Source: a virus. From it: a stretch of DNA of 5,899 nt. Position 1 is the stretch's first letter; the number at the start of each line of letters is the position of its first letter. Of this stretch, positions 1 to 5,899 are shown piece after piece. Location of the stretch: positions 1 through 5,899 of IMG/VR virus record IMGVR_UViG_3300045988_010060; one strand, 5' to 3'. Position numbers and translations under genes: made by a program. The notes under the pieces are model-generated. The model searched no databases. It was not told the DNA's origin and saw nothing but the letters and a program-made list of their open reading frames with translations.

Positions 1-85
1 GGAGACGAAACAGCACTAGCAACGCCGGGGTGGTACATCGACACCAGCAAACTTCCGAGCACATACACCGAATACATGAACATGA
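1..85. repeat. Terminal redundancy: an exact 85-nt copy of 5815-5899, marking a circular genome linearised with overlap.
   Basis: Direct comparison: ggagacgaaacagcactagcaacgccggggtggtacatcgacaccagcaaacttccgagcacatacaccgaatacatgaacatga occurs at both ends of the window. Confidence 0.95.
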
Positions 86-288
86 TGAACGAGCAGCGGG
101 AAAAGTTCGACCAACTGCCGTTGAACATCAGGAACAAGTTCAACAACAACTTCAACGAATACATGGCAACCGCAGGAGAAGAAAGCTGGTTGCAAAATAT
201 GGGAATTTCGACGAAAAAAGTCACGGCAGCAGCCAACGAAAATCGTCAAAACGGAGAAAATCAAAAAGAAGGGAGCGAAAATAAATGA
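1..288 (+). CDS. VP3: Internal scaffolding protein VP3, C-terminal part. The gene wraps the circular junction and continues from 5602..5814.
   Basis: Frame 1 is open from base 1 to TGA 286-288 (GDETALATPGWYIDTSKLPSTYTEYMNMMNEQREKFDQLPLNIRNKFNNNFNEYM...SENK*). Bases 1-85 duplicate 5815-5899 in the same frame as ATG 5602. The joined gene is 501 nt (166 aa). The F-x-x-LP-x-x-IR-x-x-F-N-N block matches my recollection of gokushovirus VP3 scaffolds. Confidence 0.8.
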   Translation, partial: GDETALATPGWYIDTSKLPSTYTEYMNMMNEQREKFDQLPLNIRNKFNNNFNEYMATAGEESWLQNMGISTKKVTAAANENRQNGENQKEGSENK

Positions 289-1928
289 GCCGAAACGCGG
301 AACAGCATTTCACACAAGTACCGCACGCAGAAATCAGGCGCAGCAGCTTCAAGCGGCCTTTTAGTCTCCTGACAACTCTCAACGAAGGAGATCTTGTACC
401 GATCTACGTTGACGAAGTACTTCCCGCGGACACCTTCAGGATTGACCTGAACAGTCTGGTACGCATGAGCACACCGCTTTATCCGGTCATGGATAACTGT
501 GATATTGATTATTATATGTTCTTCGTGCCGGCACGCTTGCTCTGGGAACACTTCGAGAACCTGATGGGTCAAAACGATTCGAGCTTCTGGGCAGAAGATG
601 TAGAGTACACAACGCCGGTGACGACAGCGCCTAAAGGCGGATGGGCAAACGGAACCATTGCGGACTACTTCGGCATTCCGACCGGAGTAGAAAACCTGAA
701 AGTGAACAGTCTGCCGTTCAGAGCTTACGCGAAAATCTGGAACGAGTGGTTCAGAGACGAAAACTTACAGCAGCCTGTAACCATGAGCAAAACGGACGCA
801 ACAACGGCAGGAAGCAACACAGGAAACAAACTCACAGACGCAGAAGCAGGTGGCCTGCCGCTGAAAGTAGCAAAACACAAAGACTATTTCACATCCTGCC
901 TTCCTTCGCCGCAAAAAGGCGAAGCGGTGCAACTGCCACTAAACGGAAACGCATATATCAAGTACGCATCCGGAACCAAAGATAAAGAATATTATAAATT
1001 ACAAGACAGCAACGATAACAACAGATACGGGCTATATTTATCAGATTACAATAACTTCCAAAACGGCTCTGTGAGAATAAAGGCAACACTGGGAGAGCCA
1101 TTCATAAACATCAAAGACGATAAAACAAGAGATGACATCTATTTAGCGGCAGACCTCGGAAGCGTAACCGCAACAACCATCAACGAACTTCGCAACGCGA
1201 TTGCAGTGCAGCATATCCTCGAACGAGACGCACGAACCGGCACGAGGTACAAAGAATACCTCAAAGGCGCATGGGGTGTGACGAGTCCAGACGCTCGACT
1301 GGATAGAAGCGAGTACATCGGCGGGTGCAGAGTGCCAATCAACATCAATCAGGTAGTGCAGACGTCCAGCACCAACGAAACCAGTCCGCAAGGCAACACA
1401 GGCGCCTACAGCATGACAACCAACAGCCAACACATGTGCACCTACTCAGCAACGGAGCACGGCTTTGTCATCGGTCTGGCGTGCGTAAGAGTACAGCACA
1501 GCTATCAATACGGACTGCGAAGAATGTGGACCCGAAGCACACGATTCAGCTATTATGACCCGATGCTCGCAAACCTTGGAGAACAGGCAGTGCTGAATCA
1601 AGAAATCTATGCACAAGGCAACGAAAAAGACGAGGAAGTCTTTGGATACCAAGAGGCATGGGCAGATTACAAATACAGAACCAACGAAGTGACATGTGAA
1701 ATGCGGTCCAACTTCGCTCAGACTCTGGATGCATGGCACTACGCAGACAAGTACACCAGTCTTCCGACTCTCTCCGACACATGGATTAAAGAAGGCAAAG
1801 AAAACATTGACAGAACAATTGCAGTGCAAAGCGCAAACAGTCATCAGTTCATTTGCAACTTCTACTTCGAGCAGACGTGGACAAGAGCAATGCCGGTGTA
1901 CAACATCCCCGGCCTTGACACGATCTAA
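285..1928 (+). CDS. VP1: Major capsid protein VP1 (Microviridae F/VP1 family)
   Basis: 547-aa ORF. RBS AAGGGAG lies at 269-275. ATG 285 overlaps the VP3 stop (ATGA). Blocks HFTQVPHAEIRRSSF, GDLVPIYVDEVLPADTF, VRMSTPLYPVMDN, YYMFFVPARLLWEHF and TINELRNAIAVQHILERDARTGTRYKEYL are hallmarks of microvirus major capsid proteins as I recall them. Confidence 0.95.
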   Translation: MSRNAEQHFTQVPHAEIRRSSFKRPFSLLTTLNEGDLVPIYVDEVLPADTFRIDLNSLVRMSTPLYPVMDNCDIDYYMFFVPARLLWEHFENLMGQNDSSFWAEDVEYTTPVTTAPKGGWANGTIADYFGIPTGVENLKVNSLPFRAYAKIWNEWFRDENLQQPVTMSKTDATTAGSNTGNKLTDAEAGGLPLKVAKHKDYFTSCLPSPQKGEAVQLPLNGNAYIKYASGTKDKEYYKLQDSNDNNRYGLYLSDYNNFQNGSVRIKATLGEPFINIKDDKTRDDIYLAADLGSVTATTINELRNAIAVQHILERDARTGTRYKEYLKGAWGVTSPDARLDRSEYIGGCRVPININQVVQTSSTNETSPQGNTGAYSMTTNSQHMCTYSATEHGFVIGLACVRVQHSYQYGLRRMWTRSTRFSYYDPMLANLGEQAVLNQEIYAQGNEKDEEVFGYQEAWADYKYRTNEVTCEMRSNFAQTLDAWHYADKYTSLPTLSDTWIKEGKENIDRTIAVQSANSHQFICNFYFEQTWTRAMPVYNIPGLDTI

Positions 1929-1940
1929 GGAGACAAAAAA

Positions 1941-2906
1941 ATGCAACTGGCAGGAATCTTAAACGCAGCAACAAAGCTGCTACCAGTGATAAGCGCCGGA
2001 ATAGGCGTAGCTGGTCAAATTAAAAATTTAATATCGAGCGGTTCAGGAGCCAGTACAAACGCACAAAGCGGCTCATCTTCTAATCAGACGATAGGGACAA
2101 CATCGAGCAGCCAGACCAGCACGGGACAGACACAACAAACAACGTCACAATATGGAGGAAGCACAGGAACCAGCGAGACAATCGGCAACGTTGGAAGCCT
2201 CGGAAGCATCCTGACAAGAGCACTGGGAACCGCAACAGGCAACAACAGCGGCCTAGCTGCAAACTTTAACGCCGGACAGGCACAGACAGCAAACAACCTC
2301 CAAACAGGAAGTTGGACACTGGCAAACCTGATGAACCAGCTAAACGCAGCATGGCAAAACAAAAAATTGACTGAAGCAGCAACGACAGCAAACGCATTCA
2401 ATGCAGCAGAAGCACAAAAAAACAGAGACTGGCAAGAAAAAATGTCGAATACCAGCTATCAAAGAGCAGTTACAGACATGAAGAAAGCCGGAATCAACCC
2501 GATCTTAGCAGCACAAAACGGGGGAGCAAACACAGGATCTGGCGCAACAGCAAGCGCCGCGGGACTGCCAAACTTCACACACGCACAAGCAGCAGCGATA
2601 CCAGCAGCACATACGGCCACCATGCAAGCCATGTACGATTATGGCAACAACACAAGCCAATTCTTAAACAACGCAATGCAGACCATAAACAGCGCAAAAT
2701 CGACTAACAACTACACGGTAGCCAACTACATGGAAGGCATCATGCAAGAAGTGACTCAGACGAGTGCGCAAGGCGTTCAAAGAATGGCTCAAACGATCAA
2801 CAACAACTTCAATAACAAGGGATGGGAACACAGCAAAACAGACACGAACCAAACAGAAAAAGGAGTGTCTGGCAACATTGAAGGAAGCTACAGATCGAAA
2901 AGTTAA
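1941..2906 (+). CDS. VP2: Minor capsid / DNA pilot protein VP2
   Basis: 321-aa ORF directly after VP1. RBS TAAGGAG lies at 1926-1932, 8 nt upstream. It has a hydrophobic N-terminus (MQLAGILNAATKLLPVISAGIGVAG) and a long S/T/G/Q/N low-complexity tract. The SNTSYQRAVTDMKKAGINPILAAQ block is typical of gokushovirus VP2. Confidence 0.85.
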   Translation: MQLAGILNAATKLLPVISAGIGVAGQIKNLISSGSGASTNAQSGSSSNQTIGTTSSSQTSTGQTQQTTSQYGGSTGTSETIGNVGSLGSILTRALGTATGNNSGLAANFNAGQAQTANNLQTGSWTLANLMNQLNAAWQNKKLTEAATTANAFNAAEAQKNRDWQEKMSNTSYQRAVTDMKKAGINPILAAQNGGANTGSGATASAAGLPNFTHAQAAAIPAAHTATMQAMYDYGNNTSQFLNNAMQTINSAKSTNNYTVANYMEGIMQEVTQTSAQGVQRMAQTINNNFNNKGWEHSKTDTNQTEKGVSGNIEGSYRSKS

Positions 2907-2909
2907 CTA

Positions 2910-2937
2910 TTGACATGCGAGAAAGAAGGTGTATAAT
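2910..2937 (+). promoter_or_regulatory. Sigma70-type promoter P1 (TTGACA, 16-nt spacer, TATAAT) upstream of RHH1 and probably rep
   Basis: TTGACA at 2910-2915 and TATAAT at 2932-2937 are both exact consensus hexamers with a 16-nt spacer. They sit in the 74-nt gap between VP2 and the next ORF. Confidence 0.65.
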
Positions 2938-2960
2938 ATGGGTGTAAGAATCGAACACCC
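2928..2960. repeat. Two 13-nt phased GGTGTA units plus an inverted ACACCC copy; candidate operator at P1
   Basis: GGTGTATAAT at 2928-2937 and GGTGTAAGAA at 2941-2950 have starts 13 nt apart. GGGTGT 2940-2945 is the reverse complement of ACACCC 2955-2960 (9-nt loop). The first unit contains the -10 hexamer. Confidence 0.6.
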
Positions 2961-2980
2961 AACCTAGAAAGGGGTATACC

Positions 2981-3181
2981 ATGAAAAGCCAAGTAACAAA
3001 AAGAATAAACGTAAATTTAACTGACCGTGAACTAACGGCACTAAAATGCTTAGAACACGAAATGAAAAACAGAAACTGGAAAATGAACGCCAGCGATATA
3101 ATCAGGGAAGCAATCGTGTACTATTGCATGAAAGAAACAGGGTACACGTTCGCCAACGAATGGAAACCCAAAACAACATAA
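2981..3181 (+). CDS. Small ribbon-helix-helix (CopG/Arc/MetJ-like) DNA-binding protein, 66 aa (RHH1)
   Basis: RBS AAAGGGG lies at 2968-2974, 6 nt before the ATG. The sequence KRINVNLTDRELTALKCLEHEMKNRNWKMNASDIIREAIVYY fits the RHH pattern: a basic-then-alternating beta strand (KRINVNL), helix 1 (DRELTALKCLEHEM), then an N-A-S cap and helix 2 (SDIIREAIVYY). Confidence 0.6.
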   Translation: MKSQVTKRINVNLTDRELTALKCLEHEMKNRNWKMNASDIIREAIVYYCMKETGYTFANEWKPKTT

Positions 3182-3191
3182 ATCCATAACG

Positions 3192-3216
3192 AATTGGAAA
3201 AAATTGCAAAAAATTG
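3192..3216. repeat. AATTG repeated three times at exact 10-nt phase (two copies as AAAAAATTG)
   Basis: AATTG occurs at 3192-3196, 3202-3206 and 3212-3216. AAAAAATTG occurs at 3198-3206 and 3208-3216. These are helically phased A-tracts lying 5 nt upstream of the stem-loop. Confidence 0.6.
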
Positions 3217-3220
3217 TGTC

Positions 3221-3261
3221 AGTGGGCCCCAATAACGTCAAGAGGGTTATTGGGGCCCACT
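3221..3261. promoter_or_regulatory. Perfect 16-bp stem-loop (9-nt loop GTCAAGAGG) between RHH1 and rep; function unknown (origin, attenuator or RNA element)
   Basis: AGTGGGCCCCAATAAC 3221-3236 is the exact reverse complement of GTTATTGGGGCCCACT 3246-3261. No T-run follows on the + strand, so it is not a canonical intrinsic terminator. Confidence 0.85.
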
Positions 3262-3284
3262 AAGGGAAGGTGCAACTAAAACAA

Positions 3285-4403
3285 ATGTCATGTACAAAAC
3301 CACTCGTAAGATTTAGTGACGGAGAAGTAACAAGCCTTAAAAGATACCTAGAATATGGCAGAAGATACAAATCAACATTCTACATGGGAGATGGACCATA
3401 CTTAGACGAATCAGCCGAAAAAAAACTGTTGAGACAAATCAAAGAAGAAGGCTGCACACTCTTACCATGCGGACACTGTGCAGCGTGTAAGCTGACAGCA
3501 TCGAGCAGTTGGGCAAACAGAATGGAAATGGAATTACCTTACCATAAAAACGCATGGTTCCTAACTCTGACATACGATGACGAGCACGTGCCTTGGAGCT
3601 ACAACAACGGTTTAGGAATCAATAAATGGACCGGAGAAGTGGAAGTAGAAAACTTAACTCTTAATTATAAAGATATGCAAGACTTTTGGAAAAGGCTAAG
3701 AAGATACAGAGAATACCACAACATAGACGATGGGCAACTGATGTACTTTCAAGCCGGAGAATACGGAGGTAAAACACACAGACCGCACTATCATGCAATA
3801 GTGTATGATCTGAACATTAAAAAAGAGGACCTAAAAGAATACAAAAGAAAGAACGGTATTGTGTATTATAATTGCGACTGGATAACAAAAATCTGGGGAA
3901 ACGGCCACGTAGTTATAACAGAAGCGAGCTGGAAAGCATTTGCATACACAGCAAGATACACCACAAAAAAGGTATATGGCAGCGAAAGCAAAAAATACTA
4001 CTCAGACATGGGAATCTTACCGGAAAAGTGCATGATGAGCAAAAACCCGGCAATCGGTATGAAGTACTACGAGGAGCACAAAAACGAAATCTACAAGAAA
4101 GACAGCATTCAACTAAAAAACGGCAGACGCTGCAAGCCACCAAGATACTTTGATAAGCTCTTCGATCTGGAACACAGCCAAAGCGGACCACTCAGCAAAG
4201 CAGAAAGCGAAGAAATCGAAGAAACAACAGAAAAAGCCGAATCCGAAGAACTGAAAGCCATCAAACGCGAAAGGCGAAGAATTGCGAATGATGCACTATT
4301 TGCTCAGCTCAAACAGACCGGCCTAACCATGCAAGAATATTATAACCTGAAAGACAAAAAAATGCAAGAACGCATAAAAAAACTTATCAGGGAAGAAATC
4401 TAG
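3285..4403 (+). CDS. VP4: Rolling-circle replication initiator VP4 (HUH superfamily Rep)
   Basis: The ORF track opens at GTG 3270, but ATG 3285 gives MSCTKPLVRF, the usual M-x-C-x-x-P style N-terminus. A Cys cluster CGHCAACK lies at 3468-3491. Motif I is FLTLTY (3558-3575), motif II is HYHAIVY (3786-3806) and motif III is YTARYTTKK with two Tyr (3945-3971). Stop TAG is at 4401-4403. Confidence 0.9.
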   Translation: MSCTKPLVRFSDGEVTSLKRYLEYGRRYKSTFYMGDGPYLDESAEKKLLRQIKEEGCTLLPCGHCAACKLTASSSWANRMEMELPYHKNAWFLTLTYDDEHVPWSYNNGLGINKWTGEVEVENLTLNYKDMQDFWKRLRRYREYHNIDDGQLMYFQAGEYGGKTHRPHYHAIVYDLNIKKEDLKEYKRKNGIVYYNCDWITKIWGNGHVVITEASWKAFAYTARYTTKKVYGSESKKYYSDMGILPEKCMMSKNPAIGMKYYEEHKNEIYKKDSIQLKNGRRCKPPRYFDKLFDLEHSQSGPLSKAESEEIEETTEKAESEELKAIKRERRRIANDALFAQLKQTGLTMQEYYNLKDKKMQERIKKLIREEI

Positions 4404-4470
4404 CGGCCACGGCGCGCGGAAAGCAGCACACAAGAAAAACGGCATAAAGAACGGCCAATAAAGGGAAGAC

Positions 4471-4504
4471 AGGGCGACGCGATCAGATAAGATTGCGTCG
4501 CCCT
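4471..4504. other. GC-rich hairpin: 10 perfect bp, extendable to 14 bp, with a 6-nt loop
   Basis: AGGGCGACGC 4471-4480 pairs with GCGTCGCCCT 4495-4504. Inner GATC 4481-4484 pairs with GATT 4491-4494 (one G-T wobble). The loop is AGATAA. Confidence 0.75.
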
Positions 4505-4513
4505 CTATTCGTC

Positions 4514-4534
4514 CGGCGCGGGGCAGCCGCGCCG
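4514..4534. other. Second GC-rich hairpin (8 bp, 5-nt loop)
   Basis: CGGCGCGG 4514-4521 pairs with CCGCGCCG 4527-4534; the loop is GGCAG. It is followed by the palindrome CCGATCGG at 4532-4539. Confidence 0.65.
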
Positions 4535-4562
4535 ATCGGGCGACCTCTGGGTAAAAAAGTGC

Positions 4563-4591
4563 TTGACAAGTGTATAATTTAGGTGTATAAT
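4563..4591 (+). promoter_or_regulatory. Perfect-consensus sigma70 promoter P2 (TTGACA, 17-nt spacer, TATAAT)
   Basis: TTGACA at 4563-4568 and TATAAT at 4586-4591 are separated by exactly 17 nt. The promoter is 28 nt upstream of ATG 4619. Confidence 0.75.
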
Positions 4592-4621
4592 AAAGGTGTA
4601 GAAAGGATGGTGTAAACCATG
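4569..4621 (+). repeat. Four tandem 13/14-nt units with an R-GTGTA-(T)AA core; candidate iterated operator
   Basis: The units are aGTGTATAATtta (4569-4581), gGTGTATAATaaa (4582-4594), gGTGTAgAAaggat (4595-4608) and gGTGTAaAccatg (4609-4621). Unit 2 carries the -10 hexamer. Unit 4 covers the start codon of the 84-aa ORF. Confidence 0.7.
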
Positions 4622-4873
4622 AAAGATTATGAAGAACTGAAACTGACCACAGAAGGCAATCATGAAAGTATACCAAACGATGCAGCATGGTGTCTATACG
4701 ACGGCGGATGGAGAAAAGAAGACTGGGAACTATTCAAAAAAACCGAAACCACAAAAGACCCAGAAGAAGAATTCAAGTGGTACCTAGACCCAGATAATGA
4801 ATACTGGGACAAAAGAGAATATGAAGAAGCACTAGAAATGTGCGAAAACATCGTAAAAGAAAGAGAACAATAA
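4619..4873 (+). CDS. Hypothetical acidic, Trp-rich 84-aa protein (accessory, moron-like)
   Basis: The ORF lies directly between P2 and a strong intrinsic terminator. By my count it has 26 Asp/Glu against 12 Lys/Arg (net about -14) and 5 Trp. I recognise no family. Confidence 0.7.
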   Translation: MKDYEELKLTTEGNHESIPNDAAWCLYDGGWRKEDWELFKKTETTKDPEEEFKWYLDPDNEYWDKREYEEALEMCENIVKEREQ

Positions 4874-4877
4874 CAAT

Positions 4878-4924
4878 AAAAACGTAAGAGTGAACAAAAC
4901 CACTCTTGCGTTTTTTTTTTTTTT
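4878..4924 (+). terminator. Rho-independent terminator (10-bp stem, 8-nt loop, T14 tail)
   Basis: CGTAAGAGTG 4883-4892 pairs with CACTCTTGCG 4901-4910 (one G-U wobble). The loop is AACAAAAC. Fourteen consecutive T follow at 4911-4924. A5 at 4878-4882 can extend the stem. Confidence 0.85.
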
Positions 4925-4932
4925 GGTAAAAT
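4924..4932 (+). promoter_or_regulatory. Candidate extended -10 promoter P3 (TGnTAAAAT) for the ORF40-J-RHH2-VP5-VP3-VP1-VP2 block
   Basis: TGGTAAAAT at 4924-4932 fits TGnTAnnnT. The T14 tract lies upstream and AGGAGG at 4941-4946 lies just downstream. There is no good -35 (TTGCGT 4906-4911 with a 15-nt spacer). Confidence 0.35.
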
Positions 4933-4951
4933 CAAAGAAAAGGAGGTAAAC

Positions 4952-5074
4952 ATGAAGCTGAAAGAAATCAAAGAAATGATTGAACACCTGAAAAAGATCC
5001 TGAACACGCTGGATAAAATCTATCATATCCTGAATCAGGACGAAGACAAGGAGGAAAACAATGACACACCGTAA
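4952..5074 (+). CDS. Hypothetical 40-aa coiled-coil-like peptide with an acidic tail
   Basis: RBS AGGAGG at 4941-4946 lies 5 nt before the ATG. The product is MKLKEIKEMIEHLKKILNTLDKIYHILNQDEDKEENNDTP. It falls below the ORF-track length cutoff. Hydrophobic residues follow a 3-4-3-4 spacing. Confidence 0.5.
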   Translation: MKLKEIKEMIEHLKKILNTLDKIYHILNQDEDKEENNDTP

Positions 5075-5180
5075 GAGCGTAAATCCGAAGAAGGACCAGA
5101 GAATCTTCACCAACACAGCGAAGAAGACCAAAAAAATCAACGTGAACCCGAAGCCGTCACGCGGCGGCATCCGGCTGTGA
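5061..5180 (+). CDS. Small basic DNA-binding/packaging peptide (gokushovirus ORF8-like, phiX J analogue), 39 aa
   Basis: RBS AAGGAGG at 5048-5054 lies 6 nt before the ATG. The product is MTHRKSVNPKKDQRIFTNTAKKTKKINVNPKPSRGGIRL, with 12 Lys/Arg and 1 Asp. The F-x-x-TA core and C-terminal RGG-x-RL match my memory of this peptide family. Confidence 0.7.
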   Translation: MTHRKSVNPKKDQRIFTNTAKKTKKINVNPKPSRGGIRL

Positions 5181-5380
5181 AGCGGGTGAAGGACCTCGAA
5201 AGCTTTGGAGTGAGCGTAAAACTAGGCTACAAAGAAATGATGCTGGTGGACGAACTTCAAAAGCTGATTGAGGAAGAGACAAGAGAAAAAATAAGCGCTG
5301 GAAAAATCCTCAGAGCGCTCATCAAAGAAGGATTAAAAAACAGCCAAGCAGTAAGAGAGGAGCTTGAAAATGATTTATGA
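5177..5380 (+). CDS. Second small ribbon-helix-helix-like protein, 67 aa (RHH2); start codon uncertain
   Basis: GTG 5177 overlaps the upstream stop (GTGA). FGVSVKLGYKEMMLVDELQKLIEEETREKISAGKILRALIKEGL fits a strand (VSVKL), helix 1 (KEMMLVDELQKLIEEE) and helix 2 (AGKILRALIKEGL). There is no strong RBS. GTG 5186 is an alternative start. Confidence 0.5.
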   Translation: MKRVKDLESFGVSVKLGYKEMMLVDELQKLIEEETREKISAGKILRALIKEGLKNSQAVREELENDL

Positions 5381-5621
5381 CATCTACGCAATCAAAGACG
5401 AACTGGCCGGAACCTTCGGCAACCTGATGATTATGCTCGACAAGGTAGCAGAACGGAACTTCAAGTGGATCATGCTTGAAAGCGAAAAAGCAGACTGCGA
5501 CGACCGCAGGATCTACTACATGGGCAAATATGACAACGAGAGCGGCGCGATCTACGCAGAGCAGCCGAAACTCGTCTACAATCTGGAAGAGGAAAAGAAA
5601 AATGCCAAAGAGAATCTTTAA
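5370..5621 (+). CDS. VP5: VP5-like non-structural protein, 83 aa
   Basis: RBS GAGGAG at 5356-5361 lies 8 nt before ATG 5370 (the track starts at TTG 5364). MIYDIYAIKDELAGTFGNLMIMLDKVAERNFK...RRIYYMGKYDNESGAIY fits the Y-x-I-x-D...F...A-x-R-x-F...G-x-(F/Y)-D-x-E-(T/S)-G pattern I recall for gokushovirus ORF5/VP5. It sits in the conserved position just before VP3. Confidence 0.6.
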   Translation: MIYDIYAIKDELAGTFGNLMIMLDKVAERNFKWIMLESEKADCDDRRIYYMGKYDNESGAIYAEQPKLVYNLEEEKKNAKENL

Positions 5622-5899
5622 GCCCTTTGAAGATGAAAAACCGGAAGCAAAAGAAAACTGCTGCGGAAACCGTATGGAACCGCAGTACGCCGAACGATAC
5701 GACGAAAACGGCAAAGCCTACCTTGAAAAGGTCGGAGAGGTGGACACTTACGAAAAAATCCAGAGTTACCGGGATGAATGCGACGTAATGGCAATCCTGA
5801 GCAGATACGCAGCAGGAGACGAAACAGCACTAGCAACGCCGGGGTGGTACATCGACACCAGCAAACTTCCGAGCACATACACCGAATACATGAACATGA
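5602..5899 (+). CDS. VP3: Internal scaffolding protein VP3, N-terminal part; runs off the window end and continues at base 86 (equivalently base 1 follows 5814)
   Basis: RBS GAGGA at 5589-5593 lies 8 nt before ATG 5602. My manual translation is MPKRIFKPFEDEKPEAKENCCGNRMEPQYAERYDENGKAYLEKVGEVDTYEKIQSYRDECDVMAILSRYAAGDETALATPGWY..., with no stop before the window end. It is absent from the ORF track only because it is open-ended. Confidence 0.8.
   Translation, partial: MPKRIFKPFEDEKPEAKENCCGNRMEPQYAERYDENGKAYLEKVGEVDTYEKIQSYRDECDVMAILSRYAAGDETALATPGWYIDTSKLPSTYTEYMNM
5815..5899. repeat. Terminal redundancy: an exact copy of 1-85
   Basis: Identical 85-nt string at both window ends. Confidence 0.95.

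Follow-up and report, generated by a model that had tools for sequence, protein, structure and literature searches.

Microviruses are among the most abundant phages of the gut and are thought to be nearly devoid of accessory genes and to exchange little with other elements (PMC9239249). When a gene in such a genome lies behind a consensus promoter of its own, the question is whether it belongs to the phage backbone or is cargo and, if cargo, what it is carried for. We address this question for a locus in the IMG/VR virus record IMGVR_UViG_3300045988_010060, of which positions 1 to 5,899 were analysed on one strand (the whole of this 5,899-nucleotide stretch is called the window). Positions 4563-4924 hold a perfect consensus promoter, an open reading frame (ORF) for an acidic protein of 84 amino acids (aa) and a terminator with a run of 14 T, which an earlier reading of the letters, here called the original prediction, had taken for a moron-like autonomous cassette with a possible anti-defence role. 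The phage moron, a concept that comes from the lambdoid phages and HK97, is an additional gene that is inserted between backbone genes together with a promoter and a terminator of its own. On our best reading of the compared sequences, a clade of gokushoviruses from human and animal guts has a conserved slot for accessory genes, which in this region is occupied, and we consider it somewhat probable that this slot is an anti-defence slot whose present cargo is a candidate new immune inhibitor.

Results

A conserved slot with variable cargo

The comparison set comprised about 60 related gut gokushovirus genomes, and loci were gathered in three ways: by a promoter-motif scan of viral contigs (14 loci), by a survey that was selected on the replication initiator VP4 and is independent of the promoter motif (41) and by a metagenome scan (25). 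A homologue search with synteny in microviruses, as the original prediction had proposed, located homologues of the 84-aa protein in related phages at the same locus, between the VP4 and VP8/VP5 genes. A promoter-cargo module is present in about 23 of the about 33 VP4-selected genomes that have enough downstream sequence. The promoter, leader and terminator of the slot are nearly invariant, and the ORF between them belongs to one of eight families that have no detectable similarity to each other; in MG945569 (L003), for example, a different gene lies between the same promoter and leader and the hairpin and T-run. The whole-genome alignment gives the same picture, with conservation dropping in the bins that cover the cargo to some of the lowest values of the genome (0.29-0.41) and returning to 0.68-0.82 over the terminator.

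Occupancy of the slot also differs between close relatives. When L029 is set against L001, a clean deletion is seen that runs from within the -35 hexamer to just past the cargo stop codon, and L048 retains only a remnant, the final codons of a family-A cargo ('...LKEYENK' and the stop). The slots of L049 and L093 are empty, the promoter being joined straight to the terminator hairpin, and six further genomes (L044, L046, L047, L041, L061 and L060) have neither promoter nor cargo. The structural genes of L060 are 92-94% identical to those of the window, yet the module is absent. The module is therefore dispensable, being absent from or deleted in close relatives, and the description of the locus as a moron-like accessory cassette is well supported by this presence and absence and by the eight cargo families between nearly invariant flanks.

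Cargo and backbone do not travel together. The same 52-aa cargo occurs in genomes with VP4 proteins that are 69, 68 and 51% identical to the window VP4, and cargo family F in genomes in which this identity is 73% and 51%. Since the same cargo allele stands alongside very different VP4 proteins, cargos move between lineages, and the exchange presumably takes place by recombination in the conserved flanks. The G+C content at 4601-5000 is 0.315-0.41 as against about 0.46 in most of the genome, a modest contrast. Several of the alternative cargos are basic (isoelectric point, pI, about 9), and acidity is thus not a property of the slot. A function of the cargo as an essential lysis gene was ruled out, given the hydrophilic nature of the cargos and the loss of the module from relatives that look viable.

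Two other accessory insertions were noted near this junction. L043 carries a 136-aa gene directly behind the hairpin, T-run and TGCTACAAT junction (at about 3285-3870, about 100-585 nucleotides (nt) past the VP4 end), which by eye resembles an M15-type peptidase (motif ...SAYRTPAHNKAVGGRPLSYHMKGMAADIQV...). In L060, a 71-aa ORF (650-865) follows right after VP4, where the promoter-cargo module would sit.

The 84-aa protein and the LYDGGWR family

The protein encoded at 4619-4873 is as acidic and tryptophan-rich as predicted, with 26 Asp and Glu against 12 Lys and Arg residues (net charge -14, pI 4.34) and 5 Trp. Nothing significant was found in Pfam, PHROGs or NCBIfam for the protein or its core domain (a match to phrog_28186 is weak, E = 0.005), and sequence-profile searches of the PDB gave chance matches only (E ≥ 0.36). 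The statement that the protein has no recognisable family is thus correct for these three collections but does not stand as a whole, since a large uncharacterised family exists. A profile of the locus homologues matched 832 proteins in a large protein database, and an exhaustive search returned 576 clusters (50% identity) at E ≤ 0.001, with 207 at ≤ 1e-10. The common unit of this family, which we name LYDGGWR after its motif, is ~45 aa long (AAALYDGGWRxxDxxxLxxEYxLxxxEADAICEKLKEYE) and occurs alone (47-62 aa), in tandem repeats or as the C-terminal part of longer acidic proteins.

Several comparisons place the window protein within this family. Its motif AAWCLYDGGWRKED ... ALEMCENI follows the family order A-x-A-L-Y-D-G-G-W-R, D, E-Y, I-C-E-x-L, and in alignment A3 residues Y27, G30, W31 and R32 are invariant and C75 is conserved at the level of at least 90%. 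BLASTP searches that start from the window protein reach the 71-aa subfamily at 2e-23 and the 53-aa subfamily at 6e-7, and a hidden Markov model (HMM) built from short core members only, excluding the window subfamily, recovers the 84-aa ORF at 24 bits (E = 9e-6). The protein is an expanded member which, in addition to the insertion listed in Table 1, carries an N-terminal extension in the alignments; the acidic insertion is missing from most family members. The microviral copies have net charges of -7 to -14 in 51-84 aa, and the family has a single nearly invariant basic residue.

The core of the family is predicted with confidence to be a three-helix bundle (49-aa representative P0048, predicted local distance difference test (pLDDT) score 93.7, predicted template-modelling (pTM) score 0.73, helices at 5-14, 19-29 and 33-48). 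A search of BFVD with this core model returned uncharacterised gut siphovirus homologues only. The model of the 84-aa protein, made from a 52-sequence alignment, is poor (pLDDT 52) but has helices at 21-27, 33-41 and 65-83, the segments that match those of the core. The proposed Foldseek comparison was made with the core model, which has no significant PDB neighbour. The sister allele in L081, a genome 94.8% identical to the window, differs by 6 synonymous and 7 nonsynonymous changes, and the resulting ratio of nonsynonymous to synonymous rates (pN/pS 0.25) agrees, as weak evidence, with a coding sequence that is functional.

Outside the microviruses, LYDGGWR genes were traced to genomes of Clostridia and Bacilli (a scan of genome contigs with 4 confirmed loci; a 'Babeliales' contig is not a microvirus). 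These hosts fit the strong AGGAGG-type ribosome-binding sites of the present phage. In temperate siphophages the genes lie in a block of small genes, transcribed in the opposite direction, that is placed between the immunity/early region and the lysis/tail genes, and they are also found in integrase-bearing elements. In one prophage-like context, a 155-aa gene that adjoins a LYDGGWR gene (L066 7288-7755, L067 2300-2767) itself matches the LYDGGWR profile (41.7 bits), and paralogous copies can thus be adjacent. Tandem duplications and fusions were seen among P0070, P0122, P0058, P0121 and P0250, the last of which joins LYDGGWR to a gamma-glutamyl cyclotransferase-like (GGACT) domain, and P0072 and P0088 share a recurrent N-terminal partner domain ('MT(R/K)FYDNNRVLDIT...') that is also uncharacterised. 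As a whole the fusion partners are uninformative, being mostly other acidic uncharacterised segments, with the one GGACT domain.

An anti-CRISPR family in the same slot

One set of alternative cargos belongs to a characterised family of inhibitors of CRISPR immunity. The cargos of family G (L035, L036, L078, L086 and L099) are full-length members of the AcrIC5 family, with a PF22147 score of 91.9 bits (curated cut-off 27; E = 2.7e-26) over model positions 2-53 of 53, and where the flanks were read, in L036 and L099, the gene lies behind the same promoter and before the same terminator. The microviral AcrIC5-like protein forms five 90% clusters on microvirus-sized contigs; homologues 60-69% identical to it are found on contigs of 28-229 kb, one of which is an integrase-bearing element in an NCBI genome. 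AcrIC5 orthologues occur in Firmicutes and Actinobacteria and block CRISPR interference (CRISPRi), implying that target binding by the type I-C Cascade complex is blocked (PMC7913775). The AcrIC5 protein itself is highly acidic, and prediction places it over the site in Cas8c for the protospacer-adjacent motif (PAM) (bioRxiv 10.1101/2025.06.06.658234).

The two families also meet outside the slot, in prophage-like and integrative elements. In L023 an AcrIC5-family gene lies directly upstream of the LYDGGWR gene. In L018, L019 and L021 both are part of one operon of small genes, with LYDGGWR as its first gene and the AcrIC5-family gene as its last; the operon also encodes a protein with a borderline resemblance to ArdC-N. 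These AcrIC5 neighbours are above the Pfam threshold, at 42 and 65 bits. Inside the window cassette, which is monocistronic, no helix-turn-helix (HTH) or ribbon-helix-helix (RHH) regulator of the anti-CRISPR-associated (aca) type was found; RHH-like ORFs are present elsewhere in the genome (2981-3181 and 5177-5380). With regard to the hosts, 766 gut Microviridae genomes are CRISPR-targeted, and Firmicutes are among the predicted targeting hosts (PMC8530359). In the account of AcrIB2 from C. difficile phages, the putative anti-CRISPR (Acr) proteins are described as having no identifiable similarity to known Acrs; the accessible part of that account gives no link to the LYDGGWR family.

Promoter, leader and a paralogous second promoter

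The predicted TTGACA-17-TATAAT promoter is perfect, matching the consensus at 12 of 12 positions (4563-4591). Its -35/-10 context is nearly invariant in about 45 related genomes, and bin 4551-4600 is the most conserved 50-nt bin of the whole-genome alignment (0.88, a value with some bias, as the bin contains the motif used for the search). Promoter and leader agree almost base for base across genomes with an overall identity of otherwise about 70%, and a block of 32 nt, AGGTGTATAATAAAGGTGTAGAAAGGATGGTG, is the same in the window and L001-L003.

The claim that this is the only gene with its own consensus promoter had to be given up, as a second perfect promoter precedes a 66-aa ORF (2910-2937). 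The window thus has two perfect TTGACA-N16-18-TATAAT sites, compared with 0.00 expected from 200 shuffles. A core, AGGTGTATAATAnnGGTGTA (extended, AGGTGTATAATAnnGGTGTA.GAA), is common to the promoters at 4563 and 2910 (repeat families D2 and D7 and alignment). Many relatives have two copies of motif GGTGTATAATANNGGTGTA, and genomes that lack the cassette keep only the copy between VP2 and VP4, close to VP4, from which it follows that cargo promoter and VP4-proximal promoter are paralogues. The four GTGTA boxes spread over the -10 and leader may reflect either an operator or this promoter paralogy. The RHH-like protein encoded at 2981-3181 could be a regulator of the GTGTA-box promoters.

The surroundings of the second promoter look like another cassette (2910-3261): promoter, 66-aa ORF and a perfect 16-bp inverted repeat (3221-3236/3246-3261) without a T-run just ahead of VP4, with conserved flanks (0.81-0.82) and a variable interior (0.46-0.55). 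Allowing up to 9 mismatches, the exact 2910 promoter is found only in L026, L038 and L062, each with a diverged RHH-like ORF. An additional TATAAT lies at 4573-4578, 4 nt past the -35 of the cargo promoter, and arises from a tandem GTGTATAAT repeat; most relatives differ there (GTGTATAAAAGA, GTGTATGTTTTA), and because it is not conserved in most of them it is probably non-functional. Between the VP4 stop and the cargo promoter (4471-4547) lie two G+C-rich hairpins, at 4471-4504 (14 pairs) and 4514-4534 (8 pairs), with a folding energy of -29.5 kcal/mol as single-stranded DNA (ssDNA; z = -5.3). Behind the two, at about 4540-4547, the first arm recurs as a third copy (GGGCGACC), which makes alternative pairing possible. 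This arrangement is kept, with differing sequences, in relatives with or without the cassette, and the hairpins may be a VP4 terminator or a complementary-strand origin.

A backbone terminator fused to a presumed promoter

The predicted terminator is present in the sequence, with a 15-pair stem (4878-4915) and exactly 14 T (4911-4924); the hairpin is calculated at -19.5 kcal/mol (z = -5.55 relative to shuffles). What was not borne out is that it is private to the gene. Relatives with or without cargo all keep a hairpin, 8-17 T and then TGnTA(A/G)AAT (37 distinct junction sequences), and genomes that lack promoter and ORF still hold hairpin, T-run and TGnTAAAAT at the same place. In the form TGnTA(A/G/C)AAT, the TG is seen in 35 of the 37 distinct junctions. 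The stems are of several sequence types, all of which pair, and an alignable subset contains 4 pairs with compensatory changes. The terminator thus looks like a backbone feature that is shared with upstream VP4 transcription and used by the cassette.

With its retention with or without cargo, this junction looks like a VP4-region terminator fused to an extended -10 promoter. Both TTTTTTTGNTAAAAT and TTTTTTTGGTAAAAT are unique in the window, with 0.00 expected for each. The TGGTAAAAT element abutting the T-run is presumed to be the promoter of the downstream operon (40-aa ORF, VP8/J-like protein, RHH-like ORF, VP5, VP3, VP1 and VP2). Such a fusion of terminator and promoter amounts to a compact insulator of natural design and may be of interest in synthetic biology. 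A search of the window against Rfam gave no RNA family, which ruled out a known riboregulator in the cargo region.

Genome context

Bases 1-85 of the window recur at 5815-5899, and the genome is therefore a circle of 5814 nt with terminal redundancy. All of its long ORFs are on the + strand and form the standard gokushovirus set in Pfam and PHROGs scans (Table 1). Its nucleotide identity to pig and human gut gokushoviruses is ~70-73%, and a human-gut metagenome contig, OURV01004881 (L096), is 100% identical and carries the identical 84-aa gene. No integrase or lysogeny module was found in this phage clade in the ORF list or with Pfam and PHROGs.

The VP8/J-like gene is highly conserved across all relatives and overlaps the 3' end of the 40-aa ORF; with 39 aa it falls just short of the 40-aa minimum of the ORF list. 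The place of the latter, 4952-5074, is a second variable position: L001 and L029 have a hydrophobic 39-aa peptide instead (MMVAGTIGMIAAAAALTILALELG...), which could be a lysis or membrane peptide, and in other genomes the ORF is absent. Within VP1, two stretches are strongly variable (951-1150 and 1451-1600, conservation 0.14-0.39) and likely correspond to the hypervariable VP1 region that is characteristic of gokushoviruses (PMC7062461).

Table 1. Features of the window, in order of position; parts of the 84-aa protein are given by residue.
Feature	Position	Strand	Details
Scaffold VP3	wraps origin; C-terminal part 76-288	+	
Major capsid VP1	285-1928	+	Phage_F, E = 1e-165
Pilot protein VP2	1941-2906	+	
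Second perfect promoter	2910..2937	+	TTGACA-16-TATAAT; before the 66-aa RHH-like ORF and VP4; GGTGTATAATAnnGGTGTA motif common with the cargo promoter
66-aa RHH-like ORF	2981-3181	+	'KRINVNLT...DIIREAI'
Replication initiator VP4	3270-4403	+	
Cargo promoter	4563..4591	+	-35 TTGACA (4563-4568), 17-nt spacer, -10 TATAAT (4586-4591); 12/12 consensus match
Four GTGTA boxes	4570, 4583, 4596, 4610 (region 4570..4614)	+	Spacing 13, 13 and 14 nt; across -10 and leader
Leader, Shine-Dalgarno-like	4602..4612	+	AAAGGATGGTG; 6-11 nt 5' of the ATG
Cargo ORF	4619..4873	+	84 aa; expanded LYDGGWR-domain protein
Helix 1 region of the 84-aa protein	residues 22-32		Around AAWCLYDGGWR
Helix 2 of the 84-aa protein			KEDWELFKK
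Insertion of the 84-aa protein	about residues 43-67		Acidic and aromatic, about 25 aa; between helices 2 and 3
Helix 3 of the 84-aa protein			EYEEALEMCENIVKEREQ
Intrinsic terminator	4878..4924	+	15-pair hairpin 4878-4915 (core ACGTAAGAGTG / CACTCTTGCGT, 8-nt loop), T14 at 4911-4924
Extended -10 promoter-like element	4924..4932	+	TGGTAAAAT; abuts the T-run
40-aa ORF	4952-5074		Directly after the junction promoter; motif ...LKKIL..LDKIYH... common to many relatives
VP8/J-like basic protein	5061-5180	+	39 aa (MTHRKSVNPKKDQRIFTNTAKKTKKINVNPKPSRGGIRL); DNA-binding type
67-aa RHH-like ORF	5177-5380		Between VP8 and VP5; position conserved, sequence highly variable (conservation 0.27-0.44)
VP5	5364-5621	+	Phage_ORF5

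Discussion

We have described a site in the genomes of gut gokushoviruses at which nearly invariant transcription signals surround exchangeable genes. The reading we favour, that of an anti-defence slot with a candidate immune inhibitor as its cargo here, draws on three observations: an AcrIC5 homologue occupies the slot in related phages, AcrIC5-family genes are neighbours of LYDGGWR genes elsewhere, and the window protein is too acidic for a plausible DNA binder. According to this reading, the incoming ssDNA would be converted to the double-stranded replicative form, on which the host sigma-70/sigma-A RNA polymerase would fire the consensus promoter. The product would be an abundant monocistronic mRNA of about 300 nt that ends at T14, with the adjacent extended -10 restarting transcription of the structural operon, and the 84-aa protein would bind and block a host immune protein stoichiometrically. 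The most likely specific target would be the CRISPR-Cas effector complex of a Clostridia-type host, a narrower proposal that we hold less firmly than the reading as a whole.

A number of findings weigh against this interpretation. For seven of the eight cargo families no function can be recognised, and basic proteins (pI about 9) make up several of them. AcrIC5 neighbours were found in 2 of about 9 distinct non-microvirus contexts, a count that has no background rate to be set against. Neither Pfam and NCBIfam nor a BLASTP comparison with the AcrIC5-like cargo relates the window protein to AcrIC5 or to known anti-defence proteins, its own structure model is the poor one described above, and Foldseek comparison of the core model with the PDB gave only generic HTH or UBA-like three-helix cores at E > 4. 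The evidence for purifying selection comes from few substitutions (pN/pS 0.25-0.52), and one branch of the family, A' (L004, L006 and L074), has neither the GGWR motif nor the acidity. We put forward only tentatively the wider proposal that the clade as such keeps a dedicated anti-defence slot with recombination-swapped cargo and that the LYDGGWR proteins make up a widespread, previously undescribed family of inhibitors of CRISPR or of other defences; it is a substantial possibility rather than a probable one.

The alternative that survives best is that the slot is accessory in nature but serves other ends, such as phage competition through superinfection exclusion, host takeover or physiology, with LYDGGWR acting on a non-immune target and AcrIC5 being one passenger among others. 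The seven families without recognisable function, several of them basic, would suit such a mixed role, and we note that the homologue in double-stranded DNA (dsDNA) prophages sits where exclusion and conversion genes also occur. Microviruses reportedly evolve superinfection exclusion through a different locus, as a study of hypervariable pilot proteins is said to show. The sole cargo with a recognisable family is, however, an anti-CRISPR, LYDGGWR genes have AcrIC5-family genes, and a gene with borderline ArdC-N similarity, as direct neighbours or operon partners, and prophage-type exclusion is less natural in a clade that has no integrase or lysogeny module. We regard this alternative as unlikely.

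A further possibility, which is a sub-case of the favoured reading, is that the protein mimics DNA as Ocr and ArdA do, with an acidic surface that would imitate the phosphate backbone and titrate DNA-binding defence enzymes. The net charge of -14, the pI of 4.3 and the acidic and aromatic insertion invite this idea, as does the allelic cargo, since for AcrIC5 both high acidity and a block of DNA binding are described (PMC7913775; bioRxiv 10.1101/2025.06.06.658234). However, no match to Ocr, ArdA or any DNA mimic was obtained with Pfam, PHROGs or NCBIfam or at the level of fold; prediction gives the core of 49 aa as a compact bundle of three helices and not as an elongated DNA-like rod; and the charge-rich insertion, itself a low-confidence part of the prediction, is missing from most of the family. 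Mimicry of this kind is rather improbable in our view. The anti-defence idea of the original prediction gains support that is real, though indirect, from the AcrIC5 homologue in the same slot and beside LYDGGWR genes elsewhere, while the link it drew to Ocr and ArdA finds none in Pfam or fold comparisons.

It could also be argued that the LYDGGWR protein is a regulator, either Aca-like or a phage development factor, in which a small HTH-like domain of three helices controls the strong GTGTA-box promoters. The best, though non-significant, fold matches in the PDB are winged-helix or HTH cores, the LYDGGWR gene of L023 is directly 3' of an AcrIC5-family gene in the usual acr-then-aca order, and the GTGTA boxes repeated in both promoters are a possible operator. 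Strong acidity (-7 to -14) and one nearly invariant basic residue are nonetheless hard to square with DNA binding, these phages already encode RHH-type candidates elsewhere, and a slot in which the gene, or AcrIC5, stands alone behind the same promoter needs no cognate regulator. It is because of this acidity and single basic residue, and because the gene is alone in its slot and AcrIC5 replaces it without a partner, that we prefer an effector to a regulator, for which the prospects appear poor.

Finally, the view that the ORF encodes a conserved component with a structural or scaffolding role, or that it is spurious and lies in a non-coding spacer, has nothing in its favour but the short length and the missing annotation in deposited relatives. 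It can hardly be credited for an ORF that is absent from close relatives with intact virion genes, has a pN/pS below 1 and shares a conserved motif and a confidently predicted fold with hundreds of homologues, including those of prophages and integrative elements. The original prediction had named a conserved structural or scaffold gene at this position as a finding that would speak against it; the gene proved instead to be dispensable and variable. By profile the 84-aa ORF matches none of the conserved gokushovirus core proteins (VP1-VP5 and VP8), and in relatives it is absent or replaced.

If the wider proposal is true, the ssDNA Microviridae would gain their first described acr-type locus, as far as can be told from the searchable literature; in the library searched, we found no description of a promoter-flanked variable slot, of a microvirus anti-CRISPR gene or of the LYDGGWR motif. 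It would also mean that microviruses draw on the anti-defence pool of dsDNA mobile elements, contrary to the view of their genetic isolation. Swapped cargo that is common to prophages and integrative elements would revise the picture of microviruses as poor in accessory genes and in exchange (PMC9239249), and would help to explain how phages of 5-6 kb survive the CRISPR targeting that is recorded for hundreds of gut microviruses (PMC8530359). In practical terms, the nearly invariant promoter and terminator flanks provide a search pattern, and metagenome genes that lie between them are anti-defence candidates. The analysis yields seven uncharacterised families and a large unnamed domain family as candidates to be tried against type I-C/I-B CRISPR-Cas and other defences of gut Firmicutes.

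Comparison with known systems

The closest parallel is with AcrIC5-type acr loci, which likewise consist of a small, very acidic protein behind a strong consensus promoter on an invading element, are variable and are horizontally exchanged. The AcrIC5-family gene is moreover allelic in this slot and a neighbour of the homologues elsewhere. The differences are that the window protein has no sequence similarity to AcrIC5, that the cassette contains no aca regulator, that the carrier is a 5.8-kb ssDNA microvirus and that the inhibitory role is here proposed from sequence alone.

Known microvirus accessory genes offer a second comparison. Kirchberger et al. 2022 (PMC9239249) describe a limited accessory repertoire, mainly of methyltransferases and peptidases, in these phages, which they see as cut off genetically from the pangenome at large. 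The slot resembles this repertoire in its non-core, lineage-variable content within a very small genome, and the peptidase M15-like insertion at the L043 junction is of the familiar sort. The LYDGGWR and AcrIC5 cargos differ in being ~45-70% identical to copies in prophages and integrative elements. Hypervariable regions of the microvirus pilot protein are said to confer superinfection exclusion; unlike those, the variable element described here is a separate gene with its own promoter and not a region within a structural protein. With Ocr and ArdA the window protein shares small size and strong negative charge, but neither sequence nor fold relates them, its core being predicted as a compact three-helix bundle.

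Phage morons, in turn, are like the cassette in having their own promoter, a 3' terminator, presence or absence among close relatives and a lower G+C content. They are unlike it in that the terminator here belongs to the backbone and the promoter is paralogous to a backbone promoter, and in that the site is a fixed, reusable slot with many alternative cargos in an ssDNA carrier rather than the place of a one-off insertion. Taken together, the module works like a moron and an acr locus, in an unexpected carrier and with a cargo from an uncharacterised family.

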